Of a stretch of DNA of 64,000 bases, positions 4,321-47,656 are shown one piece after another. The position numbers and the translations under genes were made by a program. The notes under the pieces are model-generated. The model saw only the letters and a program-made list of their open reading frames with translations, was not told where the DNA came from and searched no databases. Position 1 is the first letter of the stretch. Every line of letters begins with the position of its first letter. This stretch comes from Clostridia bacterium (lineage in GTDB: Bacteria; Bacillota; Clostridia; Christensenellales; Borkfalkiaceae), in assembly GCA_017463105.1 (NCBI GenBank), contig JAFTPU010000013.1, positions 25,769-89,768 on the forward strand, written 5' to 3'.

Positions 4321-6327
4321 ATGAGGCTTTCTTTGCTCCGTTCGATCGGGGAAAAACGCGAAAAGGATTTTAATAAGCTGGGGATCTACGAGGCGGAGGA
4401 CCTCGTAAGGTTTTATCCGCGCGCGTATCTCGATCTTACCGAAAGAGCGTCGCTGAGAAACGCCTATCACAACGACGTCGTGCTTGTCGCTTGCGAGGTC
4501 ACGCGGCTTGCGCCCGTCAATTTCGCTTCGCCGCGAAAAATGGTGCGGGCGTTCTGTTCGCAGGACGGTTTGCCTTTTTCCGCGATTTGGTTCAATCAAC
4601 CGTACGTGGCGCAAAAGCTCAAGCCGGGCGAGTATCTTTTTTACGGTCGTATCCAAAACAAATTCGGACAGATCTCGATCGTCAATCCCACGTTCGAGCC
4701 GCTCGATAAAAACTACCGTTTGAAGGGCATCGTGCCCGTGTATCCGCTCAAAGGCAAGCTCAGCCAAAAGATCGTCCGCGACGCCGTAAAAGAGGCGTTG
4801 CAGCGGGTAAATTTAAACGGCGTGATCCCGTATCCGATTATAAAAAAATACGATTTGCCGCCTTTGGATAAATCGTATTTTCAAGTGCATAATCCCTCCG
4901 ATCACAACGTGCTCGAAAAAGCGTCCGAGCGTATCGCGCTCGAGGAATATTTTATCCTCATTTCCGCTTTCAAGCTCATCAAGGGCGGCAAAGAGGAGGT
5001 CCGTATCAAACGCTACGGCGTAACGGCGGGCGAGGTGAAGGAATTTGCCTCCCGCTTTGGTTTCGAACTCACCGACGGACAGAAAAACGCCGTCAACGAG
5101 ATATTCGAAAGCCTCCACGCGCCCACGCGTATGAACAGACTCGTGCAGGGCGACGTAGGCAGCGGTAAAACGGCGGTCGCGCTGTGCGGTATTTTTATGG
5201 CGGTAAAGAGCGGGTATACGGCGGCGTATCTTTCGCCTACCGAAGTGCTTGCCGCACAGAATTACAACGTACTGAAAAAACACTTTCCCGACTACGAGGT
5301 GGGATACCTTGCGGGCGGTATGACCGCCAAGGAAAAGCGGGAACTGAAAGTCCGTCTGAAAAACGGGGAGATCGATATCCTTTGCGGTACGCACGCCATT
5401 TTGCAAGGCGACGTGGAAATTCCCCGCCTGTCCTTTATCGTATGCGACGAACAGCACCGCTTCGGCGTAGCGCAAAGAAACGCGCTCGCGGAAAAAGGCG
5501 TGGGGGCGGATATGCTCGTTATGAGCGCGACGCCTATTCCGCGCACCCTTTCGCTGATTTTTTACGGCGATCTGGAAGTCACCTCCATTCACGACAAGCC
5601 CAAGCAAAGGCAGGAGGTCACGACGTCGATCATTCCCGAAAGCAAGTACGACGATATGCTCGAGTACGTGAGAAAAGAAACGCAAGCGGGTAAACAGGCG
5701 TATTTCGTATGCGCGAAGATCGACGACGATGAGGAAGGCTCGATCATCAGCGTGAACGAGCTTTTCGACGAGCTGAAAAACCGTTTGCCGACCGTGCGCT
5801 TCGGCTTGTTGCACGGCAGAATGAAGGACAAAGAGAAAGCGGAAGTGATGACGGCGTTCAAAAACCGCGAGTACGATTGCTTGGTTTCGACGACCGTGAT
5901 CGAGGTGGGGGTCGACGTGCCCAACGCCACCATTATGATCGTCTACAATGCCGAACGGTTCGGGCTTTCCCAGCTTCACCAGCTTCGCGGTCGGGTAGGG
6001 CGCGGCGCGGATAAGAGCTACTGTTTTCTGCTTATGGGTGCGGACGGCGAAGTCGCGCGCGAGCGCTTGACGACGCTTAAAAACAATACGGACGGGTTCA
6101 AGATCGCGGAAAAGGACCTCGAAATGCGGGGCGGGGGAGACTTCTTCGGCACGCGGCAATCGGGAAAATTGCTCGGCGATATCAAAAATCTGCGCTATCC
6201 CACGCAGGTGGTTTTTGCCGCGAAGAAGCTTTCGGACGAAACGTTCGAGGGGAGATTCGACGACGAGGAGCTGCGCGCGGCGGCGTTGAAGAAGTACGAC
6301 AGCCTGAAAGACGTGGTGCTGAATTGA
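4321..6327 (+). CDS. recG: ATP-dependent DNA helicase RecG
   Basis: 668 aa. It has Walker A GDVGSGKT, the DEQH box (VCDEQHRFG) and helicase motif VI QLRGRVGRG. The N-terminal wedge-like region is typical of RecG. Confidence 0.95.
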   Translation: MRLSLLRSIGEKREKDFNKLGIYEAEDLVRFYPRAYLDLTERASLRNAYHNDVVLVACEVTRLAPVNFASPRKMVRAFCSQDGLPFSAIWFNQPYVAQKLKPGEYLFYGRIQNKFGQISIVNPTFEPLDKNYRLKGIVPVYPLKGKLSQKIVRDAVKEALQRVNLNGVIPYPIIKKYDLPPLDKSYFQVHNPSDHNVLEKASERIALEEYFILISAFKLIKGGKEEVRIKRYGVTAGEVKEFASRFGFELTDGQKNAVNEIFESLHAPTRMNRLVQGDVGSGKTAVALCGIFMAVKSGYTAAYLSPTEVLAAQNYNVLKKHFPDYEVGYLAGGMTAKEKRELKVRLKNGEIDILCGTHAILQGDVEIPRLSFIVCDEQHRFGVAQRNALAEKGVGADMLVMSATPIPRTLSLIFYGDLEVTSIHDKPKQRQEVTTSIIPESKYDDMLEYVRKETQAGKQAYFVCAKIDDDEEGSIISVNELFDELKNRLPTVRFGLLHGRMKDKEKAEVMTAFKNREYDCLVSTTVIEVGVDVPNATIMIVYNAERFGLSQLHQLRGRVGRGADKSYCFLLMGADGEVARERLTTLKNNTDGFKIAEKDLEMRGGGDFFGTRQSGKLLGDIKNLRYPTQVVFAAKKLSDETFEGRFDDEELRAAALKKYDSLKDVVLN

Positions 6328-6448: not shown

Positions 6449-7087
6449 ATGGCTACAATGAAAGACAAGTGGAACGTCGGCGAACTGAAATTCGATGAGA
6501 ACGGGTTGATACCCGTGATCGCGCAGGACTACGAAAGCGGCGAGGTGTTGTTGCTTGCGTATATGAACGAGGAAGCGGCGAAAAAGACGGTGGAGACGGG
6601 CTATACGCATTATTACGACGTGGAACAGAAGGTGGTGGACACCTTCGGCGCGTCGCTCGGCAATACGCAGAAAGTCAAGGCGGCGTTTCTCGAAAACGGC
6701 GGCAAAGCTTTGCTTTTGAAGGTGCAACAAAACGGCAACGCCGATCCCGAGGACAAGTCCTTTTCCTGTTTTACGGAACAGATCAAGGGCGATTATAAGG
6801 ATATCGGCGGCGAAATGTTCGGCAGATTACAGCGTATCGTCGGCGAATATAAAAAGAACCCCGAGGACGGCGGCTACACCAGCTTCCTGTTCGCCCGCGG
6901 GGTGGACCGTATCGGCAAAAAGGTGGGCGAGGAAGCGGTCGAGTTTGTGATCGCGTCCAAAAATCCCGAAAAGGAAGGGGTCGTCAACGAGGCGGCGGAT
7001 CTTCTCTATCATGTAATGGTGCTTTTAAGCGCCCGCGGCGTCAAGCTTTCCGAGGTTTGCGCGGAGCTTTGCAAACGGAACAGATAA
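6449..7087 (+). CDS. HisI-like/HisE fusion: intact phosphoribosyl-ATP pyrophosphatase (HisE) domain with a degenerate PRA-cyclohydrolase-like N-domain
   Basis: The C-terminal half matches the HisE/MazG pattern (YTSFLF..G.DRIGKKVGEEAVEFVIA...EAADLLYHVMVLL). The N-terminal half aligns to HisI (GLIPVIAQDYESGEVLLLAYMNEEA...SCF) but lacks the SRSR/KGETSG and DCD/ACH metal-site motifs. Confidence 0.7.
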   Translation: MATMKDKWNVGELKFDENGLIPVIAQDYESGEVLLLAYMNEEAAKKTVETGYTHYYDVEQKVVDTFGASLGNTQKVKAAFLENGGKALLLKVQQNGNADPEDKSFSCFTEQIKGDYKDIGGEMFGRLQRIVGEYKKNPEDGGYTSFLFARGVDRIGKKVGEEAVEFVIASKNPEKEGVVNEAADLLYHVMVLLSARGVKLSEVCAELCKRNR

Positions 7088-10415: not shown

Positions 10416-11300
10416 ATGAAGCTTACGAAAATTTTCGAAAAGAACGAATATTCCCTGTCCTTCGAGGTGTTTCCGCCCAAGACGGACGACGTGTACGACA
10501 GCGTAAAGACGGCGACGGAGGAGATCGCGCGGCTCAAGCCCTCGTTTATGAGCGTGACCTACGGCGCGGGCGGCGGTACGAGCAAGTATACGCTGAAGAT
10601 CGCGGAAGAGATCGCGCGCGAGCACGACGTTCCTTCGCTTGCCCATCTCACCTGCGTGTCGTCGACGAAAGAGACGGTGCGGGCGCGTATCGAGGATTTC
10701 AAAAACGCGGGCGTCGAAAACGTCATGGCGCTCCGCGGGGATATCCCCCAAAGCATGCAGGAGGAGAACAGAGCGAATTGGGACTACCGTCACGCGGTCG
10801 ATCTGATCGCCGAGCTGAAAGCAAGCGGCGCGGATTTTTGTATCGGCGGGGCGTGCTATCCCGAGGTGCATCCCGAGAGCGGCTCGCAGAAAGAGGATAT
10901 CCGCCATTTAAAAGAAAAGGTCGAGGCGGGTTGCGAGTTTTTGACCACGCAGATGTTTTTCGATAATAATTTATTATACAATTTCCTGTATAAAATTCGC
11001 GAGGCGGGGATCACCGTGCCCGTGATCGCGGGGATCATGCCGATTACGAACGCGAAGCAGGTGGAGCGCGCGATCAAGCTTTCGGGCTCGTTCATGCCCC
11101 AAAGGTTCAAGAGTCTCGTGGATAAATTCGGCGGCGACCCTGCGGCGATGAAACAGGCAGGCATTGCGTATGCGACCGATCAGATCATCGATCTGTATGC
11201 GAACGGAGTCAATCACGTGCACGTGTATTCGATGAACAAGCCCGACGTGGCGGCGAAGATACAGAGCAATCTCTCGGATATTTTGGGCAAAAATGCTTGA
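10416..11300 (+). CDS. metF: 5,10-methylenetetrahydrofolate reductase
   Basis: 294 aa. The MTHFR pattern runs throughout (SFEVFPPKT, SVTYGAGG, HLTC, ALRGD, and the CYPE..HPES region). Confidence 0.9.
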   Translation: MKLTKIFEKNEYSLSFEVFPPKTDDVYDSVKTATEEIARLKPSFMSVTYGAGGGTSKYTLKIAEEIAREHDVPSLAHLTCVSSTKETVRARIEDFKNAGVENVMALRGDIPQSMQEENRANWDYRHAVDLIAELKASGADFCIGGACYPEVHPESGSQKEDIRHLKEKVEAGCEFLTTQMFFDNNLLYNFLYKIREAGITVPVIAGIMPITNAKQVERAIKLSGSFMPQRFKSLVDKFGGDPAAMKQAGIAYATDQIIDLYANGVNHVHVYSMNKPDVAAKIQSNLSDILGKNA

Positions 11301-11970
11301 CGGCGTGTTTATCGAAAATTACGCCGCGCCGCCCGTGGACGAGCGGGAGATACTCCGATATGCGGGGAACAAGGCGGACGCGGACGAGAGCTTGAAAAAG
11401 CTCCTCGACGAGTGCTTGCGCGAGTGCTTGCCCGTGCTTTCCTATCGCGTGTGTTACGCCGTGGGAAAGGCGCGGGAGCTCGAAGAGACTTTCGGCGGGG
11501 AATATAAGGGCACGCTGTTGACGAGGCGGCTTTGCGGCGCGGAATACGCGGCGGCGTTCGCGGCGACGGTGGGTTTGGGTATCGATCGGCTGATCCTGCG
11601 GTATACGGAGGTCGCGCCGACGAAAGCGCTGTTATTGCAGGCGATCGGCGCGGAGCGGATCGAGGCGCTTTGCGACGCGTTTTGCAAGGATATGCAAACG
11701 GAATGGGCGACGAAAGGCTTTAAGGTCGGCGCGCGGTTCAGCGCGGGCTACGGCGATTTTCCGCTGACGGCGCAAAGGAAGATATTCGCTTTGCTTTCGC
11801 CCGAGCGCAGGATAGGTCTGACGCTGAACGGTTCGCTTCTTATGACCCCGACGAAGTCGGTGACGGCGATCGTACCGATCGGCGGGAACGCAACGCTAAG
11901 CGGCGGTTGCGCGGAATGTGAGCTGAAAGAATGTGAAATGAGGGGCGGCGTAAGAGGTCAAGGAACTTAG
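11293..11970 (+). CDS. stand-alone methionine synthase activation (AdoMet-binding/reactivation) domain protein
   Basis: 225 aa matching the MetH activation-domain pattern (RFSAGYGDFPL..Q..IF.LL...IGL.L..S.LM.P.KS). It overlaps the metF stop by 8 nt. Its last codons and stop lie inside repeat E1. Confidence 0.75.
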   Translation: MLDGVFIENYAAPPVDEREILRYAGNKADADESLKKLLDECLRECLPVLSYRVCYAVGKARELEETFGGEYKGTLLTRRLCGAEYAAAFAATVGLGIDRLILRYTEVAPTKALLLQAIGAERIEALCDAFCKDMQTEWATKGFKVGARFSAGYGDFPLTAQRKIFALLSPERRIGLTLNGSLLMTPTKSVTAIVPIGGNATLSGGCAECELKECEMRGGVRGQGT

Positions 11971-12211
11971 TTCCTTGCGGATTGTAAAGGCAGAGCCTTT
12001 ACGCCTCGACGGCAGTCGCCGTCCGTAGGGCGGAAGAATGCCCTCTCGAAAGCAAAACGAAGTTTTGCATTACTATGCCGAAAGGCGTAAAGCGCAAGCC
12101 CGCTTGCGTTGATCGCTTACGCGGTAGTGGCAAATCAAAGATTTGCTATTTGGGGTTGATTATGCGAGGGCTCCGCCCTCAACCTCCCGCAAGGGACAAT
12201 GTCCCTTGACC
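11956..12211. repeat. multi-hairpin intergenic element E1 (head-to-head dimer, 11 consecutive hairpins)
   Basis: The ends are inverted: GGTCAAGGAAC-TTA-GTTCCTTGCGG ... CCGCAAGGGAC-AAT-GTCCCTTGACC. The right arm read on the reverse strand aligns hairpin-by-hairpin with E2 and E3. Confidence 0.85.
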
Positions 12212-12236: not shown

Positions 12237-14660
12237 ATGAACGTAAGAGAATTTTTACAAAATAATATCGTCGTTTTGGACGGCGGGACGGGCACGTTGT
12301 TGCAGGCGGCGGGATTGCCGCTCGGGGAGCTTCCCGAACGTTGGAATATTACGCACGCGGACGTCGTTGCCGATATCCACCGCGCGTATTTCGACGCGGG
12401 CAGTAACGTCGTTTGTACGAACACCTTTGGCGCGAACGCGCTGAAATTCGACGGGGCGGAGCTGGAAAAAATCGTTGCTTCCGCCGTTGCGAACGCGCGT
12501 AAGGGCGCGGAGCTTTCTAAAGGCAAACAGCCGAAATTCGTCGCGCTCGATATCGGACCGTCGGGAAAACTGTTGAAGCCGTACGGCGATTTCGCGTTCG
12601 AGGAAGCCGTCGCGCTGTTTGCGAAAACGGTAAAGCTCGGCGTGAAATACGGGGTCGATCTCGTCTTTATCGAGACGATGGGCGACAGCTATGAAACGAA
12701 AGCGGCGCTTCTTGCTGTGAAAGAAAATTCCGAATTGCCCGTGTTCGTGTCCAATGCGTACGGCGGCGACGGAAAGCTGATGACGGGCGCGACGCCCGCC
12801 GCGATGGTCGCCATGCTCGAAAGCATGGGCGCAGACGCGATCGGGGCGAATTGCTCGCTCGGTCCCAAACAGCTCGCGCCTGTGGCGGAGGAGCTTCTCG
12901 CAAAAGCCTCCGTACCCGTTCTGATCAAGCCCAACGCGGGGTTGCCGCAGACGGACGGCGCGCGCACCTACTACGATGTGGACGAAAAAGAATTTGCGGC
13001 GGAGCTCGTTGCGCTTGTGAAAAAAGGCGTGCGCGTAATCGGCGGCTGCTGCGGAACGACGCCCGCATATATCGGGGAAACGGCGAAGGTGCTTGCGGGC
13101 GTTTCGCCTTTGCCTCTGACGGAAAAGAATATCGCTTGCGTGTCCTCGTATACGCACGCGGTGGAGTTCGATAAGCCGCTTCTTATCGGCGAGCGTATCA
13201 ACCCGACGGGCAAGAAACGCTTCAAACAGGCGCTTTTGGACGGCGAGACCGATTACGCGTTGAACGAGGCACTGTCCCAACGGGATAAGGGCGCGCAGCT
13301 CCTCGACGTAAACGTGGGATTGCCGGGGATAGACGAAAGGAAAACGCTTACCGAATATATCGAAAAGATCCAAGCGGTCGTCGATCTGCCTTTACAGATC
13401 GACACCTCCGATCCCGTCGCGCTCGAAAGCGCGCTCCGCGCGTATAACGGCAAACCGCTCGTCAATTCGGTGAACGGGAAACGAGAAAGCATGGACGCCG
13501 TGTTCCCGCTTGTGAAAAAATACGGCGGAGCGGTGGTGGCGCTGACGCTCGACGAAAACGGGATACCCGAAACTTGGGAGGGGCGCGTGGCGATCGCCGA
13601 AAAGATCGTAAACGAAGCGGCGAGGTACGGGATAAAAAAGAAGGACGTTTTCGTGGATACGCTGACGATGTCGGTGGCGACGGACAAAAACGCCGCCCGC
13701 ACGACCCTTTCCGCCTTGCGCTTCGTTTCACGTGAAATGGGTCTGCACAGCGTACTCGGCGTTTCCAACGTATCGTTCGGGCTTCCCGCCCGCGAAACGG
13801 TGAACGCGTCCTTTTTCGCGCTCGCGCTGGAAAACGGATTGTCGGCGGCGATCCTGAACCCCGCTTCCGTGGAAATGCAAAAGACCTATCGCGCGTTTCT
13901 CGCGCTCAACGGCACGGACGAAAACTGCGGGGAGTATATCCGTTTCGCCACGGAAATTTTACCCGCCGCAACGCCCGCGACCGTTTCCGCGGCTCCGCCC
14001 GCACCGAGCGGAACGGAGGGCGGCTCGCCCTTGCAGACGGCGATCTCGGAGGGCTTGAAGGACCGTGCGACGGCGCTTTGCAAGGAGCTGTTGCAAGAAG
14101 TTTCCCCTTTGGAGATCGTAAACGGCGAGATCGTGCCCGCGCTGGATACCGTCGGTAAGGCGTACGAGGAAAAACGGGCGTATCTGCCCCGACTTTTAAT
14201 GAGCGCGGAAGCGGCGAAATGCGCATTCGAGGTCATTAAAAACCATATGCTTTCCACGGGCGAAACGCAGACGAAAAAATGCAAATTCGTGATCGCCACC
14301 GTGAAAGGGGATATCCACGATATCGGGAAAAATATCGTCAGAACGTTGCTCGAAAATTACGGCTTCGACGTCGTCGACCTCGGACGGGACGTTCCGCCCG
14401 AAACGGTGCTCGAAGCGGTGCGAACGCACGGCGCGCCCCTCGTCGGGCTGTCCGCGTTGATGACGACCACCGTGCCCTCGATGGAGGAAACGATCGGATT
14501 ATTGAAAGCGCACGCGCCCGCGTGCAAGATCGTCGTGGGCGGCGCGGTGCTCAATAGAGAGTACGCGGAAAAGATCGGCGCGGACGCATACGCGAAAGAC
14601 GGCATGGAAACGGTACGTTACGCCGAAAAGATATACGCGGATTTATGCAAAAATAAATGA
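12237..14660 (+). CDS. metH: cobalamin-dependent methionine synthase (Hcy-binding, pterin-binding, cap and B12-binding modules; no activation domain)
   Basis: 807 aa. The N-terminal Hcy S-methyltransferase domain contains GGCCGTTP. The B12-binding motifs are GDIHDIGKNIV (DxHxxG), SALMTTT and VGGAVL. Confidence 0.92.
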   Translation: MNVREFLQNNIVVLDGGTGTLLQAAGLPLGELPERWNITHADVVADIHRAYFDAGSNVVCTNTFGANALKFDGAELEKIVASAVANARKGAELSKGKQPKFVALDIGPSGKLLKPYGDFAFEEAVALFAKTVKLGVKYGVDLVFIETMGDSYETKAALLAVKENSELPVFVSNAYGGDGKLMTGATPAAMVAMLESMGADAIGANCSLGPKQLAPVAEELLAKASVPVLIKPNAGLPQTDGARTYYDVDEKEFAAELVALVKKGVRVIGGCCGTTPAYIGETAKVLAGVSPLPLTEKNIACVSSYTHAVEFDKPLLIGERINPTGKKRFKQALLDGETDYALNEALSQRDKGAQLLDVNVGLPGIDERKTLTEYIEKIQAVVDLPLQIDTSDPVALESALRAYNGKPLVNSVNGKRESMDAVFPLVKKYGGAVVALTLDENGIPETWEGRVAIAEKIVNEAARYGIKKKDVFVDTLTMSVATDKNAARTTLSALRFVSREMGLHSVLGVSNVSFGLPARETVNASFFALALENGLSAAILNPASVEMQKTYRAFLALNGTDENCGEYIRFATEILPAATPATVSAAPPAPSGTEGGSPLQTAISEGLKDRATALCKELLQEVSPLEIVNGEIVPALDTVGKAYEEKRAYLPRLLMSAEAAKCAFEVIKNHMLSTGETQTKKCKFVIATVKGDIHDIGKNIVRTLLENYGFDVVDLGRDVPPETVLEAVRTHGAPLVGLSALMTTTVPSMEETIGLLKAHAPACKIVVGGAVLNREYAEKIGADAYAKDGMETVRYAEKIYADLCKNK

Positions 14661-14796
14661 TTTATGCAAGTTTTATACAATTATGCACGATATTCGCAAA
14701 ATATACGGAAAATATTTAAAATAAATGCATAAAAATGTTTGACATGCGGAGAAACGGGGCGTATAATAAAGGTATAAGATGAATATTTAAACACGC
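14641..14796 (+). promoter_or_regulatory. argG promoter with putative ArgR (ARG-box-like) operators
   Basis: TTGACA (14739-14744), a 17-nt spacer, then TATAAT (14762-14767). AT-rich TTATGCA/AATGCATAAAAAT boxes repeat four times upstream and over the -35. ATGAATATTTAAACAC (14779-14794) sits just after the -10 and resembles the TGAATAAAAATTCA consensus. Confidence 0.45.
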
Positions 14797-14824
14797 AGGA
14801 CGACGCGTGAAGGAGAAAAATAAT

Positions 14825-16054
14825 ATGGATAAGAAAGATATCAAAAAAGTAGTGCTTGCCTATTCGGGCGGTCTGGACACTTCGATCATTATTCCTTGGC
14901 TCAAGGAAAATTACAACAACTGCGAAGTTATCGCGGTAAGCGCGAACGTCGGTCAGGCGGACGAGCTGGAGGGCTTGGAGGAGAAAGCGATCAAGACGGG
15001 TGCGTCGAAGCTTTACGTCGAGGACCTTACGGACGAGTTCGTGGACGATTACGTCGTTCCCACGATGATGGCGGGTGCGAAATACGAGGAATACCTGCTC
15101 GGTACGTCGTTTGCGCGTCCCGTGATCGCGAAGCGTATCGTCGAGATCGCGAAAAAGGAAGGCGCGGACGCGATCTGCCACGGCTGTACGGGTAAGGGTA
15201 ACGATCAGGTGCGTTTCGAGCTGACGATCAAAGCGTTTGCACCCGATATGCCCATCATCGCGCCTTGGAGAGAATGGTCGATCAAATCGCGTGAAGAGGA
15301 AATCGACTATGCGGAAGCGCACAACGTGCCTTTGAAGATCAACCGCGAAACGAACTATTCGAAGGATAAGAACCTTTGGCATTTGAGCCACGAGGGTCTC
15401 GACCTCGAGGACGCGGGCAACGAGCCGCAGTATGAAAAGGAAGGCTTCCTCGAGCTTGGCGTATCGCCTTTACAGGCGCCCGATAAGCCCACGTATATCA
15501 CGCTGGAATTCGAAAAGGGCAGACCCGTTGCGCTCGACGGCAAGAAGATGAGCGCGAAAGAGATCATTCTCGCTCTCAACGAAGTGGGCGGCAAAAACGG
15601 TATCGGTCTTTTGGATATCGTAGAGAACCGTTTGGTCGGCATGAAGTGTCGCGGCGTATACGAGACCCCCGGCGGCGAGATCCTGTATGCGGCGCACAGC
15701 TACCTCGAAACGCTTTGCCTCGATAAGTACACGGCGCACAAAAAGCAGGAGCTTTCCGTATGCTTTGCGGAGCTCGTCTATAACGGACAGTGGTTTACCC
15801 CGCTCCGTGAAGCGTTGTCGGCGTTCGTGGACAAAACGCAGGAAAACGTTACGGGTAAAGTGAAATTGAAGCTTTACAAGGGCAATATCATCAAAGCGGG
15901 CGCATGGAGCGACTATTCGCTGTACTCGGAAGAGATCGCGACGTTCGGTGAGGATCACGTTTACAACCAAGCGGACGCGACGGGCTTTATCAACCTGTTC
16001 GGTTTGCCCATCAAGGTGCAGGCGCAGGTCAATGAGAAAAACGCGAAAAAGTAA
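14825..16054 (+). CDS. argG: argininosuccinate synthase
   Basis: [12 protein letters not shown]-binding motif with full-length similarity. I moved the start to ATG 14825, preceded by AAGGAG; the listed ORF begins at GTG 14807. Confidence 0.95.
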
Positions 16055-16076: not shown

Positions 16077-16247
16077 GGTCAAGGGACGTTGTCCCTTGCG
16101 GGAGGTTGAGGACGGAATCCTCGCATAATCAGCCCCAAGATAAGCAAAGCGGAGCTTTGCGCCCTTACCGCGAAGCGGTCAATGCGATTTATCGCAAGAA
16201 AAAAATAAAAACGGAGAAACCTTGCCTACTGCTATGCGGTAGGCAAA
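16077..16247 (+). repeat. multi-hairpin intergenic element E2
   Basis: It contains six hairpins: 16080-16098, 16108-16122, 16144-16160, 16167-16179, 16183-16196 and 16222-16246. The first 55 nt are nearly identical to the reverse strand of E1. Confidence 0.85.
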
Positions 16248-16259
16248 AGGTATTTAATA

Positions 16260-17645
16260 ATGGCTATGGAAAAAATGTGGGCGGGACGCTTCCAAAAAGC
16301 GCTCGATAAAAAGGCGGACGATTTCAATTCTTCCCTTCGGTTCGATTGCCGTATGTACGCGCAGGACATCAAGGGCTCGATGGCGCACGCCGCCATGCTT
16401 GCCAAGCAAGGTATCCTTCCGCAGTCGGAGGTCGATCTCATCATCGACGGCTTGGAGGGGATACTTCGCGATATCGACGCGGGCAAGCTCGCTTTTGACG
16501 GCGACGCGGAGGATATCCATATGTTTATCGAAGCGGAGCTCACCAAGCGTATCGGCGACGCGGGTAAGCGTTTGCACACCGCGAGGAGCCGTAACGATCA
16601 GGTGGCGGTCGATATCCGTTTATATCTCCGCGACGAGGCGGAAACGGTCGTTTCGCTGATCGCAGAGTTGGTGAAAGCGGTGACGGATAAGGCGGAGGAA
16701 AGCGCGGATATCATCGCGCCGGGGTATACGCATTTGCAACGCGCGCAGCCTATTTCGTTCGGACATCAGTTGGCGGCGTACGCGATGATGTTGCTTCGCG
16801 ATATTTCTCGGATAAAGGACGCCGTCAAGCGTATGAACTATTCGCCTTTGGGAAGCTGCGCTTTGGCGGGCACGACCTATCCCACCGACCGTGCGTTCGC
16901 GGCGCAGAAGCTCGGCTTCGACGGGATCGTGCAAAACAGTATCGACGGCGTATCCGATCGCGATTTCTGCGTGGAGCTGATGAGCGCGTTCGCCGTTTTG
17001 ATGATGCACCTTTCCCGTTTTTCCGAAGAGATCGTTTTATGGTCGAGCTGGGAATTCAAATTCATCGAGCTGGACGATTCGTATACGACGGGTTCGTCGA
17101 TCATGCCGCAAAAGAAAAACCCCGATATGGCGGAGCTGGTACGCGGCAAAACGGGCAGAGTCTACGGAAATTTAATGGCGCTTCTGACCACGCTCAAAGG
17201 TTTGCCGCTTGCATATAATAAGGATATGCAGGAGGATAAGGAAGCGATTTTCGATTCTTTGGATACGGTGAAAATGTGTCTGGAGGTGTTCGCGCCCATG
17301 ATCGCGACGATGAAAGTGAACGGCGAAAACACCTACCGTGCGGCGCAGAAAGGCTTTATCAACGCGACCGACCTTGCCGATTATCTTGCGAAAAAGGGCA
17401 TGCCTTTCCGCGCGGCGTACAAGATCGTGGGGCAGATCGTTGCGGCGTGTATCGAAAAGGATCGCGTGCTGGATAATTTCCCGCTCGAGGAATACAAAAA
17501 ATACAGCGAGCTGTTCGAGGAAGATCTGTATGACGAGATCTCGCTCGAAACGTGCGTGAACAAACGCACGTCTGCGGGCGGCGCTTCGCCTTCGTCGGTG
17601 AAAACGCAGGTCGCGTACGTGAAAGAGGAATTGAAAAAGATATGA
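16260..17645 (+). CDS. argH: argininosuccinate lyase
   Basis: 461 aa with the fumarate-lyase signature GSSIMPQKKNPD. Confidence 0.95.
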   Translation: MAMEKMWAGRFQKALDKKADDFNSSLRFDCRMYAQDIKGSMAHAAMLAKQGILPQSEVDLIIDGLEGILRDIDAGKLAFDGDAEDIHMFIEAELTKRIGDAGKRLHTARSRNDQVAVDIRLYLRDEAETVVSLIAELVKAVTDKAEESADIIAPGYTHLQRAQPISFGHQLAAYAMMLLRDISRIKDAVKRMNYSPLGSCALAGTTYPTDRAFAAQKLGFDGIVQNSIDGVSDRDFCVELMSAFAVLMMHLSRFSEEIVLWSSWEFKFIELDDSYTTGSSIMPQKKNPDMAELVRGKTGRVYGNLMALLTTLKGLPLAYNKDMQEDKEAIFDSLDTVKMCLEVFAPMIATMKVNGENTYRAAQKGFINATDLADYLAKKGMPFRAAYKIVGQIVAACIEKDRVLDNFPLEEYKKYSELFEEDLYDEISLETCVNKRTSAGGASPSSVKTQVAYVKEELKKI

Positions 17646-18598: not shown

Positions 18599-19816
18599 AT
18601 GTTGAAACAAATTCAGGGCGGCGTGTGCGCCGCGAAAGGTTTTAAAGCAAGCGGCGTGCATTGCGGTATCCGCAAAAACAAGACCAAACGCGATCTTGCG
18701 CTCATTTACAGCGAAAAGAAAGCGACGGCAGCCGCCGCATATACGCAAAATCTCGTGAAAGGCGCGCCCTTGACCGTGACGAAAAACAATATTTCGGACG
18801 GGTACGCGCATGCGGTGATCTGCAACAGCGGCAACGCAAACACCTGTAACGCGAACGGTATCGAGATCGCGGAGCAGACCTGTAAGCTCGTCGCCGACGC
18901 GCTGGGCATTTCCGCGAAGGACGTCGTCGTGGCTTCGACGGGCGTTATCGGTCAGCCCCTCGACGTCACGCCGATCGCAAACGGTATTCCCGCGCTTGTG
19001 GCGGGCTTGAGCGACGAAAACAGTACGCTTGCTTGCGAAGGGATCATGACGACGGACACGAAGCTCAAGGAGATCGCGTTCGAGTTTACGGCGGGCGGTA
19101 AGACCTGCCGTATCGGCGGTATCGCCAAGGGCAGCGGTATGATCCATCCCAATATGGCGACGATGCTCGTATTCGTGACGACCGATTGTAAAATTTCCGC
19201 GGCAATGCTGCAAAAGGCGCTTTCGGCGGATATTTTGGATTCGTTCAATATGATCAGTATCGACGGCGATACCTCGACGAACGACATGGTTTCCGTGCTG
19301 GCAAACGGTACGGCGGATAATGAGGAGATCGTTTCGGAAGGCGCGGATTACGACGCGTTTTGCGAGGCGCTCGCGGCGGTAACGAAATATCTTTGCCGCA
19401 TGATCGCGAGCGACGGCGAGGGCGCGACGAAGCTCCTCGAATGTAAAGTGGACGGCGGCAAGGACGAAAAAACGGCGAAAACGGTCGCGAAATCGGTGAT
19501 CTGCTCGTCGCTTTTGAAAGCCGCGATGTTCGGCGCGGACGCCAATTGGGGGCGCGTGCTTTGCGCGATCGGTTATTCGGGTGCGGACGTGGACGTAAAC
19601 AAGGTAGACGTTTCTTTCCGTTCGGCAAAGGGCGAGATCCTTGTTTGCAAGGACGGCGCGGGCGTGGCGTTTTCCGAGGAAAAGGCGAAGGAGATCTTGC
19701 TTGAGAGCGAGATCGAGATCTTGATTTCCTTGCACGACGGCGCGGCTGTCGCTACTGCGTGGGGGTGCGATCTGACGTACGATTACGTGAAGATCAACGG
19801 CGATTACAGAACCTAA
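18599..19816 (+). CDS. argJ: bifunctional glutamate N-acetyltransferase / amino-acid acetyltransferase
   Basis: 405 aa with the autoprocessing site region HPNMATMLVFVTTD. Confidence 0.95.
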   Translation: MLKQIQGGVCAAKGFKASGVHCGIRKNKTKRDLALIYSEKKATAAAAYTQNLVKGAPLTVTKNNISDGYAHAVICNSGNANTCNANGIEIAEQTCKLVADALGISAKDVVVASTGVIGQPLDVTPIANGIPALVAGLSDENSTLACEGIMTTDTKLKEIAFEFTAGGKTCRIGGIAKGSGMIHPNMATMLVFVTTDCKISAAMLQKALSADILDSFNMISIDGDTSTNDMVSVLANGTADNEEIVSEGADYDAFCEALAAVTKYLCRMIASDGEGATKLLECKVDGGKDEKTAKTVAKSVICSSLLKAAMFGADANWGRVLCAIGYSGADVDVNKVDVSFRSAKGEILVCKDGAGVAFSEEKAKEILLESEIEILISLHDGAAVATAWGCDLTYDYVKINGDYRT

Positions 19817-19823
19817 TATAAGA

Positions 19824-19945
19824 AGTCAAGAAACTTAGTTTCTTGTCAGGGGTGCGGGGGCGGAAGCCCCTGCGAAAACAGCCCAAGATAAGCAACCGTA
19901 GGTTGCGCCTATACCGCCATAGGCGGTTAGTGCAACGCAGTTGCA
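19824..19945 (+). repeat. multi-hairpin intergenic element E3 (most diverged copy)
   Basis: It contains five hairpins: 19827-19845, 19857-19870, 19892-19906, 19913-19927 and 19931-19945. Their order and the linker CAGCCCAAGATAAGCAA match E2. Confidence 0.8.
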
Positions 19946-19969: not shown

Positions 19970-20830
19970 ATGGAACTTACCAAAGCGCAGAAGGCGGAAA
20001 TTTTAAACCAAGCCCTGCCGTATATCAAAAAATACAGAGATAAGATACTCGTCGTAAAATACGGCGGTAACGCCATGATCAACGAGGAGCTCAAAGAAGC
20101 GGTGATGGGGGACATCGTCCTGTTGTCGCTGATCGGTATCAAGGTCGTGCTCGTGCACGGCGGCGGTCCCGAGATCACCGAAATGCTCGGCAAAGTCGGC
20201 AAGAAATCGGAATTTGTCGACGGACTTCGCGTAACGGATAAGGAAAGCGTCGAGATCGTGCAGATGGTGCTGGCGGGCAAGGTGAATAAAAATCTCGTCA
20301 ATCTTTTGCAGAACAAAGGCGGCAAGGCGATCGGGCTGTGCGGTATCGACGGGCATATGATCAAAGCGAAAAAGGCGGACGAAAGATTGGGCTTTGTCGG
20401 CGAGATCACCGAGGTGAACGCTTCGCCCATTCTCGACGTTTTGGAAAAGGGATATATCCCCGTGGTTTCGACGATCGGCTACGACACGGACGGCAACGTT
20501 TACAACATCAACGCGGACACGGTGGCGGCGCGCCTTGCGGGCGAGCTCAAAGCGGAGGGCTTGATCTCCATGACGGATATCGTGGGTCTGCTCCGCGATA
20601 AGGACGATCCGTCGACTCTGATCCCCAAGGTATACGTTTCCGACGCGCCCCAGCTCATTCGCGACGGCATTATCAGCGGTGGCATGATCCCCAAAGTCAA
20701 TTGCTGTATCGAAGCGATCCGCCGCGGCGTTAAAAAAGTGTTCATCATCGACGGCAGAATTCCCCATTCGATCTTGATCGAAACGCTTACCGACGAGGGT
20801 ATCGGCACGATGTTCGTTTCCGGGAATTAA
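19970..20830 (+). CDS. argB: acetylglutamate kinase
   Basis: 286 aa with the amino-acid kinase pattern VVKYGGNAM and VLVHGGGP. Confidence 0.95.
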   Translation: MELTKAQKAEILNQALPYIKKYRDKILVVKYGGNAMINEELKEAVMGDIVLLSLIGIKVVLVHGGGPEITEMLGKVGKKSEFVDGLRVTDKESVEIVQMVLAGKVNKNLVNLLQNKGGKAIGLCGIDGHMIKAKKADERLGFVGEITEVNASPILDVLEKGYIPVVSTIGYDTDGNVYNINADTVAARLAGELKAEGLISMTDIVGLLRDKDDPSTLIPKVYVSDAPQLIRDGIISGGMIPKVNCCIEAIRRGVKKVFIIDGRIPHSILIETLTDEGIGTMFVSGN

Positions 20831-20843
20831 GGAAAACCCGACG

Positions 20844-20868
20844 AAACGCGTATAAGGGCGCGTTTTTT
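20844..20868 (+). terminator. hairpin plus T-run between argB and argD (internal terminator or attenuator)
   Basis: AAACGCG-TATAAGGG-CGCGTTT followed by TTT. Confidence 0.5.
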
Positions 20869-20985
20869 ACTTCAACGGCATTCACCTTGCTCGTTTACAG
20901 ACGTAAAGTCGCGGCGGTGAAACTTCCGCCTTCAGTACAAATCGGCAACCCTTCTCCGCGTTTGAGGTAAAACGGAATAAAAATC

Positions 20986-32431: not shown

Positions 32432-32487
32432 TGGCGCAGGCGGAGGGATTCGAACCCCCGTGGGCTTTCACCCAAACGGTTTTCAAG
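32432..32487 (-). pseudogene. orphan 3' half of a tRNA-Ser(UGA) gene (anticodon loop to CCA)
   Basis: Minus strand: CTTGAAA ACCGT TTGGGTGAAAGCCCAC GGGGG TTCGAAT CCCTC CGCCTGC G CCA. Its acceptor 3' strand CGCCTGC pairs perfectly with GCAGGCG of the orphan 5' half at 33672-33713. Confidence 0.85.
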
Positions 32488-32550
32488 TTTTAACGCTTGG
32501 TTGTTATCCTTTGTTTTGCAATAGTTTGTAGTGGCATAAATTTTCAAAAA

Positions 32551-32593
32551 AGCAAGCAAATGACCGCGCATTTGCTTGCTTTTTCTTGTTTTT
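32551..32593 (+). terminator. orphan intrinsic terminator inside the element remnant
   Basis: AGCAAGCAAAT-GACCGCGC-ATTTGCTTGCT followed by TTTTCTTGTTTTT. No intact upstream gene is present. Confidence 0.6.
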
Positions 32594-32722
32594 GGTTGTT
32601 GTCGGGTGTTTTTCTTTGTCTTGCTTTGTTTTACATTTTTAGTGGAATTTTAACCGCTTTTTGTAGAGTTCTACAAATGCGATTTTAGGGCGTATTTCTA
32701 CAAATATTTTCGACACAGGTAT

Positions 32723-32950
32723 TTGATTATCTCGCACACGATTGACTCAAAAACGGCGAAAATAGCCCGAATATTCCAAGCAGGATATAGAAGCGCAGGC
32801 ATCGAGCATTACAAGCCAATCATGATGATTATGTCCGACGGTCAGCCCACCGAGGTAGAAAGCGTTGTTTATAACGCAGCACAGAGATGCTCTGACATGG
32901 TTAATACCGAGGGGTTGAAGGTTCTTCCTATCGGTATCGGAGATATGTAA
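32723..32950 (+). pseudogene. fragment of a von Willebrand factor A (vWA) domain protein
   Basis: The 75-aa ORF ends ...KPIMMIMSDGQPTE....LKVLPIGIGDM. This matches the C-terminal part of vWA/TerY-like domains, and the N-terminal MIDAS part is absent. Confidence 0.5.
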
Positions 32951-33186
32951 CAAACCACTTCGCTGTCTTACTGCGACAGCACGGACTCGACAAGATTCGA
33001 TTCCATGACCTGCGACACTCCTGTGCAACTCTCATGCTCTCCAACGGTGAGGACATGAAGAAAATCCAAGCATGGCTCGGACACAGCACGATAGTGATCA
33101 CGGCAGACACCTACGCTCACCTCGATGCACAGAGCAAGAGAGGAAGCGCATCCGTCATCGAAAACGCACTTGCAATCACCGCTTAA
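32950..33186 (+). pseudogene. C-terminal fragment of a tyrosine recombinase/integrase
   Basis: My frame-1 translation is ...LLRQHGLDKIRFHDLRHSCATLMLSNGEDMKKIQAWLGHSTIVITADTYAHL...*. It has the HxLRH, LGH and catalytic Tyr boxes but no N-terminal two-thirds. It ends 65 nt from the tRNA-Ser 3' end. Confidence 0.8.
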
Positions 33187-33250
33187 CGAGTCAAAAAATG
33201 ATACGCAGTAAGCAAAGAAAAAGCCTTGGAGCATTACGCTCCAAGGCAGG

Positions 33251-33341
33251 TGGCGGAGAGTGTGAGATTCGAACTCACGTGGGGTTTGATCCCCAAACGG
33301 TTTTCAAGACCGCCTCGTTATGACCGCTTCGATAACTCTCC
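33251..33341 (-). tRNA. tRNA-Ser (anticodon UGA), intact, class II long variable arm
   Basis: I folded it by hand. Acceptor GGAGAGT/ACTCTCC, D stem TCG/CGA, anticodon stem GCGGT/ACCGT with loop CTTGAAA. Variable arm GGGG-ATCAAA-CCCC, T arm GTGAG-TTCGAAT-CTCAC, and an encoded CCA. Confidence 0.9.
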
Positions 33342-33350
33342 ACATATGAA

Positions 33351-33379
33351 ATTATATCAAACACCTTGAAACAAGTCAA
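33351..33379 (-). promoter_or_regulatory. sigma-70-type promoter of the intact tRNA-Ser
   Basis: Minus strand: TTGACT, a 17-nt spacer, then TATAAT, ending 9 nt before the tRNA 5' end. Confidence 0.65.
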
Positions 33380-33490
33380 GGAAATTTGCGAGAAAACTGC
33401 GAGAAAGGCTTCTCGCAAAGTGCATCCGAGGATGCGAAAAACCCAATAAAATCAAGGGTTTTTGAGGGAATACATAAACAGAAGAAGGAA

Positions 33491-33532
33491 GTTTTCAAGA
33501 CCGCCTCGTTATGACCGCTTCGATAACGCTCC
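33491..33532 (-). pseudogene. orphan 5' half of tRNA-Ser (acceptor GGAGCGT to anticodon loop)
   Basis: GGAGCGTTATCGAAGCGGTCATAACGAGGCGGTCTTGAAAAC. Apart from one acceptor base it is identical to the 5' half of the intact gene. Unrelated sequence follows after the core. Confidence 0.8.
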
Positions 33533-33671
33533 GTAAATTATGAAATTGTAGAAAAATTTGTAGAAATTTTCGTTTTCAAAAAAGTTTGTAGAAACCGAAA
33601 ATCCCGTTTCGCCTTATATATAAAGGCGTTTGCAAGGATCGTCTGAATAATAGACCACTTGATTTGCGCTT

Positions 33672-33713
33672 GTTTTCAAGACCGCCTCGTTATGACCGCT
33701 TCGATACGCCTGC
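33672..33713 (-). pseudogene. orphan 5' half of the original host tRNA-Ser (acceptor GCAGGCG) with its promoter
   Basis: GCAGGCGTATCGAAGCGGTCATAACGAGGCGGTCTTGAAAAC. The acceptor strand is complementary to the orphan 3' half at 32432-32487. A perfect TTGACA-17-TATAAT promoter (33725-33753, minus strand) lies upstream. Confidence 0.8.
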
Positions 33714-33735
33714 TTGTCTACTATATTATAAAGCA

Positions 33736-33886
33736 CCAAAAGAAAATTGTCAATGATTTTTGCGCTAAAACAAAAATTCCCCTCCCCGAAAAATAGGGGA
33801 GGGAACGCGCCGTTTACTCGATATCCAATTCGGGCGGGACGTCGATCTCGTCGCGGATACGCGAAGCCACGATCTCGCTCGAGCCG
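33736..33886. repeat. left copy of a direct repeat: mosaic of the RHH-gene 3' end/terminator (= 47541-47656) and a 42-bp SPFH-gene segment (= 48211-48252)
   Basis: I aligned it by eye. 33736-33852 equals 47541-47656 except for one extra A in an A-run. 33845-33886 equals 48211-48252 with 1 mismatch. The two segments overlap in the 8-nt microhomology ATCTCGTC. Confidence 0.85.
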
Positions 33887-47540: not shown

Positions 47541-47656
47541 CCAAAAGAAAATTGTCAATGATTTTTGCGCTAAAACAAAAATTCCCCTCCCCGAAAATAG
47601 GGGAGGGAACGCGCCGTTTACTCGATATCCAATTCGGGCGGGACGTCGATCTCGTC
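47541..47656. repeat. right copy of the 116/117-bp direct repeat bracketing the accessory island
   Basis: It is identical to 33736-33852 apart from one A. It covers the RHH gene 3' end and its terminator (47582-47609). Confidence 0.9.

Follow-up and report, generated by a model that had tools for sequence, protein, structure and literature searches.

A dispersed, mosaic multi-hairpin repeat in intercistronic gaps of the met and arg operons of a Clostridia bacterium

Three gaps between met and arg genes in a 64,000-nt stretch of Clostridia bacterium DNA (assembly GCA_017463105.1, contig JAFTPU010000013.1, positions 25,769 to 89,768; hereafter the window, whose numbering is used throughout) are filled by strings of short hairpins, here called E1, E2 and E3. 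The genes run metF, the Met_synt_B12-domain gene, E1, metH, argG, E2, argH, argC, argJ, E3, argB, argD and argF, all on the plus strand, as an initial annotation of the sequence had it. That annotation implied a dedicated cis-regulatory element of amino-acid biosynthesis operons, acting as RNA or alternatively as single-stranded DNA (ssDNA). The locus raises the question of whether these hairpins belong to the operons or have been inserted into them. Our analysis indicates that the three loci hold four units of what is probably a non-autonomous, dispersed, mosaic palindromic repeat of Candidatus (Ca.) Scatosoma and related uncultured gut Clostridia, comparable to repetitive extragenic palindromic (REP) sequences and bacterial interspersed mosaic elements (BIMEs). 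The family is multi-copy, intergenic, polymorphic at orthologous sites and mosaic. It is real, structure-preserving and apparently undescribed, and it is not a regulator specific to arg or met operons.

Units of the family and their distribution

A covariance model built from 38 family members (R1), run unfiltered over the whole window, returned exactly four units with scores from 44.6 to 94.1 bits (Table 1), all within the three gaps, in agreement with the earlier statement that the other gaps hold no copy. The expected number of chance matches to the pattern of the head hairpin (h1) in the window is 0. The hairpin strings themselves were found as described: folded as RNA, the three spacers beat dinucleotide shuffles (z = -5.9 to -6.1; 0 of 200 shuffles), and DNA folds of both strands do so too (z = -3.9 to -6.5). 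The boundaries needed correction. E1 belongs to the family, yet instead of a single unit it consists of two, E1a and E1b, which lie tail-to-tail with their heads as the two outer ends and share a central palindrome. Across its first 65 nt E1b is 92% identical to E2, and E1a represents a subfamily (CGGATTG-TAAAGGC-AGA-GCCTTTA-CGCCTCGACGGCAGTCGCCGTC) that also occurs in the stretches numbered L034, L040, L053, L061, L077, L106, L120 and L122 of the genome scan described below. For E2 the proposed start at 16077 was retained and the end moved from 16247 to 16196. A start a few nucleotides past a stop codon had been proposed for every copy; at E1a, the TAG stop of the upstream Met_synt_B12-domain gene (11968-11970) is instead inside the loop of the head hairpin. 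The C-terminus of the encoded protein varies in length between relatives (195-225 aa), which suggests that insertion of E1a remodelled the end of this gene.

Each unit opens with a purine-rich lead-in and a conserved head hairpin, RGTCAAG-RRAC-N3-GTYY-CTTG, followed by at least four short hairpins with semi-conserved linkers between them (YGGG, an A-rich GCCCC block, AAGCAA and CAA). Every hairpin position draws on a small set of interchangeable stem variants. Among 55 copies the outer pairs of the h1 stem vary little or not at all, and covariation between GC and AU is seen at the inner pairs. Pairing occupies 97.3% of the cells of a model-guided alignment, with changes on both sides in 17 of 26 pairs (173 cells); none of 500 shuffles matched the observed pairing or covariation score and slid registers scored far below, figures that, coming from related repeats aligned to R1, show that pairing is kept but not how. 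The claim that the stems vary and yet stay paired is thus confirmed. Much of the covariation is whole hairpin modules assorting freely between copies, so the compensatory changes that had been reported stand as far as kept pairing is concerned, but they largely represent module swaps rather than double substitutions built up step by step in a conserved orthologous RNA. When 80 distinct full copies (353 hairpins) were parsed independently, 2356 Watson-Crick and 56 non-Watson-Crick pairs were counted, the latter comprising 24 G.T, 9 A.C and 23 others. RNAalifold on a plain MAFFT alignment recovered h1 and h2 only. We also considered a longer helix (GGG...CCCC) around h2 and rejected it; it was predicted in 44 of 52 copies, and shuffled linkers did equally well (mean z -0.44).

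We scanned one genome per prokaryotic species for the head-hairpin pattern RGTCAAGRRACNNNGTYYCTTGYSR and obtained at least 120 stretches, to whose listed members the following counts refer. They come mostly from Ca. Scatosoma and unnamed Clostridia metagenome-assembled genomes (MAGs) from animal and human guts. R1 produced 152 matches in 699 kb of these stretches, and the full five-hairpin architecture (h1 to h4 and beyond) was present in at least 51 stretches from at least 24 assemblies, every one carrying the label Ca. Scatosoma, Clostridia or Clostridiales. Several genomes contributed more than one stretch (e.g., JAZNDR01, JBGVRF01, CALWAU01 and JAFTPQ01), and many matches lie at contig ends, as expected of high-copy repeats. 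The presence of all four window units within 8 kb of one metagenomic contig might be taken for a recent local duplication, which the initial annotation had kept in view, or an assembly artefact limited to this strain. We give this practically no credence: the covariance model search found the structured family in at least 24 species-level genomes, represented by independent assemblies, it also occurs in independent metagenomes, and syntenic copies exist in relatives, so that this explanation is already refuted.

Three arrangements were seen, namely single units, direct arrays (L022, L042, L061, L077, L084 and L091) and doublets. All eight doublets, that at 11956-12211 of the window included, are heads-out and none is tails-out (L013, L060, L063 and L103, with L017, L037 and L098 detected by cmsearch). 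Overlap with called genes was limited to 5 of 148 units, all of a head-only type, and every full unit is intergenic. The flanking genes elsewhere include pflB/pflA, rnhB/GTPase, ftsX/hydrolase, relA/metallo-beta-lactamase (MBL) hydrolase, mntP/holB, dxr/rseP and proA/proC, as well as queA, tetR, and a sensor histidine kinase with its response regulator. These neighbours are functionally unrelated, which means that the association with amino-acid operons seen in the window does not characterise the family, contrary to what had been implied.

Insertion polymorphism and mosaicism at orthologous sites

Comparison of the same operons in five relatives, whose ArgH identities to that of the window are 92 (L122), 86, 85, 82 and 82%, showed that the presence of the inserts is polymorphic. 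Empty sites were found in L125, where the argJ/argB, argB/argD and argG/argH gaps measure 12, 4 and 51 nt, and in L126, where only 14 nt separate the B12-domain gene from metH. The argB/argD gap of L122 holds a unit, whereas that of the window holds a different repeat and no unit, and some of these gaps in L123, L124 and L126 carry an unrelated repeat family. Where orthologous copies exist, they are mosaic. In L122 the ortholog of E2 has retained h4, h5 and the flanks, while its h1 is replaced (GGAAC-TTA-GTTCC), its h2 is degenerate and its h3 is the variant seen in E1b; the L045 ortholog of E3 carries the spacer and h2 of E2 type; and the L122 ortholog of E1b (~5810-5965) has a foreign segment of ~160 nt nested in the loop region of h2. 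Over 55 copies, the main variants of h1, spacer plus h2, and h3 combine in nearly all ways. As the orthologous arg and met sites are empty, differently filled or mosaic, the comparison shows the window copies to be insertions and recombinant mosaics of freely assorting modules.

The hairpin at 16222-16246 (TTGCCTAC...GTAGGCAA), formerly counted as part of E2, occurs upstream of argH in all five relatives with compensatory changes, among them L125, whose argG/argH gap has no inserted repeat. The sequence AACGGAG (16211-16217 in the window) precedes it in four of the five, the lead-in of L125 being different. Its presence in all relatives, including the insert-free one, identifies it as a host feature outside E2. 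The 3′ arm extends into the likely argH ribosome-binding site, and the hairpin may serve argH as a native signal for translation or processing.

The intercistronic gaps of this lineage gather several repeat families. The repeat in the argB/argD gap of the window (20831-20985) is 72-74% identical to two adjacent places in L055. Another unrelated family (central ...CTTGCGTTTTTTCTCG...GTACG...) occupies arg-operon gaps of L123 and L126, with further copies in L030, L051, L088 and L106; the arg-gap inserts of L122 and L124, missed by BLAST, look similar to it by eye.

Loop chemistry, strand and competing explanations

Loop sequences bear on the question of which molecule acts. Leaving out h1 and setting the strand by the head hairpin, we examined 276 hairpins, 70% of which have 3-nt loops; 248 are closed by 5′-C...G-3′ versus 12 closed by G...C. 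On the top strand of the element, GNA loops outnumber TNC loops 79 to 10 and GNNA loops outnumber TNNC loops 53 to 2. The DNA mini-hairpin motif C-GNA-G or C-GNNA-G is thereby present in 132 of the 276, compared with 12 of the complementary type. The asymmetry persists in copies that are antisense to their flanking genes (19 vs 3), and control windows from the same loci gave 80 vs 90 with equal closure types. In the GCGNAGC series tested, GNA were the sole triloops that formed mini-hairpin DNA, with melting temperatures (Tm) of 70-76 C (PMC13037366), and GCGNNAGC sequences likewise form such mini-hairpins (PMC13037366; PMC3201870). Their stability depends on the C:G closing pair (PMC3201870), and the RNA counterparts are much less stable (PMC13037366). 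Given that the loops are of this DNA type on the top strand whichever way the genes run, the counts point to loops tuned for the element's own top strand as ssDNA and not for the host mRNA, and of the two modes of action initially proposed, ssDNA gives the best fit to the loop statistics. The repeat would then propagate via ssDNA, with its hairpins mattering mainly in one defined strand, and the folded top strand would be used for copying, insertion or maintenance by a trans-acting enzyme (none found here). The arg and met units would be passively co-transcribed in polycistronic mRNA, and any effect there would be limited to modulating decay or processing between cistrons, in the manner of REP, BOX and ERIC elements.

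Alternatively, the units may be primarily functional RNA modules, in which hairpin strings block exonucleases or steer endonucleolytic processing and so set the expression ratios of cistrons, their spread representing recruitment. Such a role is consistent with placement right after a stop codon and right before the next ribosome-binding site, with sense orientation in 39 of 53 single copies, with the very stable folds of the spacers as RNA, and with the top-strand excess of G.T over A.C (24 vs 9) and the U.G pair that 28 of 54 copies have at the base of h2. REP, BOX and ERIC elements affect mRNA stability, as also discussed in PMC3733652. We nevertheless regard this explanation as rather unlikely. 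Close relatives with the same operons have empty sites; one quarter of the single copies and one unit of every doublet are antisense; copies occur upstream of a promoter and S-adenosylmethionine (SAM) riboswitch (L082), within the 23S-5S spacer of L027 and in gaps between convergent genes; and Rfam yields no match. Furthermore, the 3-nt GNA loops, good in DNA and poor in RNA, stay GNA where the mRNA would read UNC (PMC13037366). The antisense quarter of the single copies and the empty or differently filled orthologous sites also contradict the dedicated cis-regulatory RNA implied by the initial annotation. As a discriminator between RNA and DNA level, G.U versus A.C pairs gave no distinction (8:4 in sense copies and 5:3 in antisense copies), there being few non-canonical pairs.

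The orientation bias may have another origin. Single units in co-directional gaps are sense in 39 and antisense in 14 cases, as counted with our own codon-usage gene caller, which reproduced most of the public gene calls of the window but overlooked argC and called TrmO wrongly. Read on the antisense strand, h3 runs into TTATCTT or a longer T-run and was detected as terminator-like; no terminator-like site was found on the sense strand of the units. We infer that the 3:1 sense excess reflects either insertion into the lagging-strand template or selection against terminator-like antisense copies. Most genes of Firmicutes run along the direction of replication, and lagging-strand targeting would consequently produce about the observed ratio. 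Targeting of the lagging-strand template is known from IS200/IS605 insertion sequences (IS), cited here as background (PMC6006769).

The units might also be neutral selfish or junk DNA with no selection on structure, the arms being kept complementary by quasi-palindrome template switching and gene conversion. Quasi-palindrome correction is an established mutational mechanism, the near-perfect Watson-Crick stems (2356 vs 56 pairs) go beyond those of typical functional RNAs, and the shuffling of discrete module variants among copies implies frequent recombination. Template switching leaves unexplained, however, the strand-specific GNA and GNNA loops with their near-universal C:G closure, a head and linkers that are conserved in 24 species or more, and doublets that are heads-out without exception, and we consider neutrality improbable.

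Finally, hairpin-rich units of 110-150 nt, single copies without terminal inverted repeats, a strand-specific ssDNA signature and an orientation bias compatible with lagging-strand targeting (PMC6006769) would suit remnants of IS200/IS605-type elements, similar to palindrome-associated transposable elements (PATEs), or omega RNA scaffolds of TnpB or IscB. The searches make this very improbable. No tnpA, tnpB or iscB gene was found beside approximately 280 units, there is no recurrent neighbour, the left flank has no fixed target tetranucleotide, and BLAST of E2 against plasmids and phages gave no match. Rfam 15, which we take to contain IS605-orfB and HEARO models, gave no match on the elements at the gathering score across the window, nor at E values up to 10 over 11.8-20.1 kb; at 18 other loci, searched at the gathering score, it returned only rRNA, T-box, tetrahydrofolate (THF) and SAM matches, all away from the hairpins. 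This bears out the initial impression that no known RNA family is involved. An IS related to the units, as expected if they were transposable elements of the miniature inverted-repeat type (MITEs), was not found in the loci, plasmids or phages. Two heads flanking 2.4 kb in L058 were examined as a possible IS and dismissed, the interior being housekeeping genes (rsmI-like, cdsA and uppS). We further dropped on inspection a CtsR operator (a single GGTCAAG heptad only), attC (no R/L boxes or integrase), CRISPR (no regular spacing) and a terminator (no T-run on the sense strand).

The interpretation as a REP/BIME-like repeat has several observations to contend with. The sense bias, the intercistronic placement and the G.T over A.C excess (24 vs 9) would also fit an RNA role, and the clustering of all four window units within 8 kb and two biosynthetic operons could be chance or preference. 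No target-site duplication is visible between filled and empty orthologous sites, whose flanks are much diverged, and the left flank shows no fixed target motif, being merely purine-rich over ~4-7 nt. All-vs-all clustering of open reading frames (ORFs) gave no recurrent neighbouring protein, only generic families (ABC transporters) and spurious ORFs, and a regular-expression scan for Y1/HUH and IS200/RAYT (REP-associated tyrosine transposase) N-terminal motifs found nothing in 2.1 Mb of repeat-bearing stretches. The stretches were selected for holding a match and are not complete genomes, so that they give no copy number per genome, and they come almost wholly from MAGs, in which mis-binning could inflate the taxonomic range. 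Moreover, REP families as a rule co-evolve with an enzyme specific to their lineage, and sequence conservation of a head across lineages and phyla, as seen here, is not usual for them.

The head also occurs beyond this clade. Repeats built on its core, GGTCAAGGGAC-N3-GTCCCTTG, are abundant in human-gut Clostridia as well, and the head with one or two GC-rich C-NNN-G hairpins and without the rest of the string occurs in many groups (Ruminococcus, Pseudoruminococcus, Hominimerdicola, Lachnospiraceae, Anaerotignum, Christensenella-like MAGs, Faecalibacterium sp. CAG:74 and Selenomonadaceae). Pseudoruminococcus massiliensis and Hominimerdicola aceti are cultivable carriers of such head modules. 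In the Selenomonadaceae MAG L027, head-type hairpins lie within 230-406, between the 23S rRNA (end 229) and the 5S rRNA (start 407). Head plus next hairpin was also seen in single MAGs labelled Akkermansia, Puniceicoccales, Magnetospirillum, Hyphomicrobiaceae and Sumerlaeota; some non-Clostridial head matches may be chance occurrences within genes or binning errors. Metagenome contigs, mostly from human gut, contained at least 129 heads and 3 full units among the matches listed, many of the heads within ~150 nt of contig ends. The dominant conserved repeat of the human-gut contigs L141-L220 (e.g., L146, L149 and L156) is a tandem of GGTCAAGGGGC-AAT-GCCCCTTG and GGTCAAGGGAC-AGC-GTCCCTTG hairpins, includes GGGGC-AAC-GCCCC, is often at contig ends and in places forms ~108-nt units starting ACGCGG...AATCGCGCGAAAG. 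The Scatosoma-type unit thus seems to be an elaboration, within one lineage, of a broader group of hairpin repeats with this head in common. A scan of viral contigs yielded 14 stretches; a few related contigs among them share a conserved cluster of hairpins, and no mobilising gene is tied to it. Eight of them (L129-L131, L133-L135, L137 and L139) share one locus in which GCTGGC-GAA-GCCAGTGC is followed by the head hairpin and then GGGC-GGA-GCCC.

We tentatively propose, as a minority possibility, that the head, GGTCAAGG(G/A)AC-N3-GT(C/T)CCTTG, together with the trailing C-GNA-G mini-hairpins might be the recognition module of an undiscovered ssDNA-acting system shared by many gut Clostridia and, by transfer, by other phyla. 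The acting party could then be a mobilising nuclease, a recombinase or a host replication or repair factor, and the Scatosoma units and human-gut repeats would represent distinct cargoes of a single superfamily whose reach would compare with that of the GTAG and CGTC REP superfamilies, with another architecture and no known enzyme.

If the REP/BIME-like interpretation is correct, a large and abundant group of gut bacteria carries an undescribed class of small palindromic repeats. This group would take in the uncultured Scatosoma-like Clostridia and, as far as the head module goes, human-gut Clostridia that are very common. Such repeats would break metagenomic assemblies (many copies are at contig ends), create spurious ORFs and alter gene ends, as here, where an element donates a stop codon, and inside essential biosynthetic operons they may change mRNA decay. 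Strand-specific mini-hairpin loops without a known transposase would point to an ssDNA mechanism whose enzyme is yet to be found. To our knowledge, nearly all characterisation of REP-type elements has been in Proteobacteria; a counterpart from Clostridia with another architecture would widen this picture and offer a handle for strain typing.

Window features and comparison with known elements

Table 1. Positions of genes, repeat units and hairpins in the window.
Feature	Position	Strand	Remarks
metF	10416-11300	+	
Met_synt_B12-domain gene	11293-11970	+	
E1a, left unit of the doublet	11956-12084	+	Sense to operon; R1 match, 44.6 bits
Central palindrome	12093-12108	.	CGCAAGCCCGCTTGCG; tails of E1a and E1b meet
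E1b, right unit of the doublet	12100-12211	-	Antisense to met operon; R1 match, 87.2 bits
metH	12237-14660	+	
argG	14807-16054	+	
E2, reference unit, argG/argH gap	16077-16196	+	h1 head and four more hairpins; R1 match, 94.1 bits (16077-16191); 3′ end from relatives
E2 h1, head hairpin	16080-16098	+	CAAGGGAC-GTT-GTCCCTTG; GGT directly 5′
E2 h2	16108-16122	+	GAGGA-CGGAA-TCCTC; module type GGGAGGTTGAG
E2 h3	16144-16160	+	GCAAAGC-GGA-GCTTTGC; GCAA...TTGC frame, C:G closing pair, GNA loop
E2 h4	16167-16179	+	ACCGC-GAA-GCGGT; core C-GAA-G is the DNA mini-hairpin motif (PMC13037366)
E2 h5, final hairpin of the unit	16183-16196	+	TGCGAT-TT-ATCGCA; kept in L122 ortholog
argH	16260-17645	+	
argJ	18599-19816	+	
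E3, argJ/argB gap	19824-19945	+	R1 match, 84 bits (19824-19939); mosaic ortholog in L045 at 6572-6685
E3 h1	19827-19845	+	
E3 h2	19854-19873	+	
E3 h3	19892-19906	+	
E3 h4	19912-19926	+	
E3 h5	19931-19945	+	
argB	19970-20830	+	

The gap between metH and argG (14661-14806) contains a perfect TTGACA-17-TATAAT promoter at 14739-14767, and its position between the met and arg units makes the arg genes a transcription unit of their own. AT-rich repeated motifs (ATGCATAAAA and TATACA) upstream of this promoter are conserved in relatives and are possibly arginine-repressor operators. Farther downstream, a 37-nt piece of tRNA-Ser (33251-33341, minus strand), at 33300 within the gene, is repeated at 33491 and 33672. 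A second tRNA-like fragment (~32435-32490) and a C-terminal fragment of a tyrosine integrase (~32980-33186) lie nearby, and the region 32435-33740 has the look of an integration hotspot that was used often and has since decayed. Over 32-48 kb the GC content is low (0.43-0.47). A 117-nt duplicate (33736-33852 and 47541-47656, 91-100% identical) includes a terminator-like hairpin (TTCCCCTCCCC...GGGGAGGGAA) as well as the 3′ end of small, paralogous minus-strand genes.

We compared the units with several known classes of element. The initial annotation had allowed that they might belong to a known Rfam family or a described REP or MITE family; in kind they do approach the REP/MITE type, and neither an Rfam match nor a published description was found, the latter being absence of evidence only given incomplete literature coverage. 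MITEs differ in that single units here have the head at one end only, show no visible target duplication and have no related IS. IS200/IS605 elements and omega RNAs differ in that the units have no tnpA, tnpB or iscB neighbour and no fixed 4-5 nt target. With attC sites and IS200/IS605 ends the units share a function that would reside in the fold of one DNA strand, stems that vary with pairing kept, and an orientation that may be tied to the replication strand; they differ in being multi-hairpin and multi-copy within operons, with no integrase, cassette array, TnpA or TnpB nearby and no recognised R/L boxes or extrahelical bases. BOX modules (boxA, repeated boxB and boxC of S. pneumoniae) are longer (45-59 nt), are not C-GNA-G mini-hairpins and have no sequence relationship to the units. 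BOX and the B. cereus bcr1-type repeats are, like the family described here, modular, hairpin-forming intergenic repeats of Gram-positive bacteria with a variable number of modules, and they are often co-transcribed, clustered and nested in one another (PMC10969869).

The CGTC-tagged REP superfamily, which includes Neisseria dRS3 and Rickettsia RPE-4 and RPE-6 (Di Nocera et al., 2013, PMC3733652), offers a lead, compared here by published description only and not by alignment to those families. Its members have a CGTC or TGTC/CCTC tag, a stem of 8-9 bp that opens with two A:T pairs, a loop of 4-5 nt and a CCA tail (PMC3733652). Similarly, the head described here has a tag ending in GTC (RGTC) and a stem opening with two A:T pairs (AAGGGAC/GTCCCTT), and both families are organised in dimers and have no dedicated transposase known. 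The present units differ by their 3-nt loop, their YGGG tail, a tag C that pairs with a G past the stem, and the long hairpin string attached; their dimers are tail-to-tail, whereas CGTC REPs are mostly head-to-head. The survey of REP superfamilies found them in Proteobacteria, Chlorobi, Bacteroidetes, Spirochaetes, Thermotogae and others and leaves Firmicutes unmentioned (PMC3733652), while the hosts here are Clostridia.

A REP is a single imperfect palindrome of 20-40 bp, whereas the units described here carry at least five mini-hairpins (stems of 5-8 bp, loops of 3-4 nt) behind one head that is conserved across lineages. The GTAG (GT[AG]G) tag is absent, the head reading RGTCAAG with a purine-rich left flank, and no RAYT gene was found in the 2.1 Mb of repeat-bearing stretches; for these reasons we do not file the family as a RAYT-associated REP. 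In kind the family is nonetheless closest to REPs, BIMEs and REP doublets forming hairpins (REPINs), with which it shares short palindromic units in many extragenic copies, often within operons or at gene 3′ ends, that form clusters, inverted doublets and mosaics of unit variants and linkers. Like them, it may act as folded ssDNA for a trans-acting enzyme, with passive transcription and possible effects on mRNA decay.

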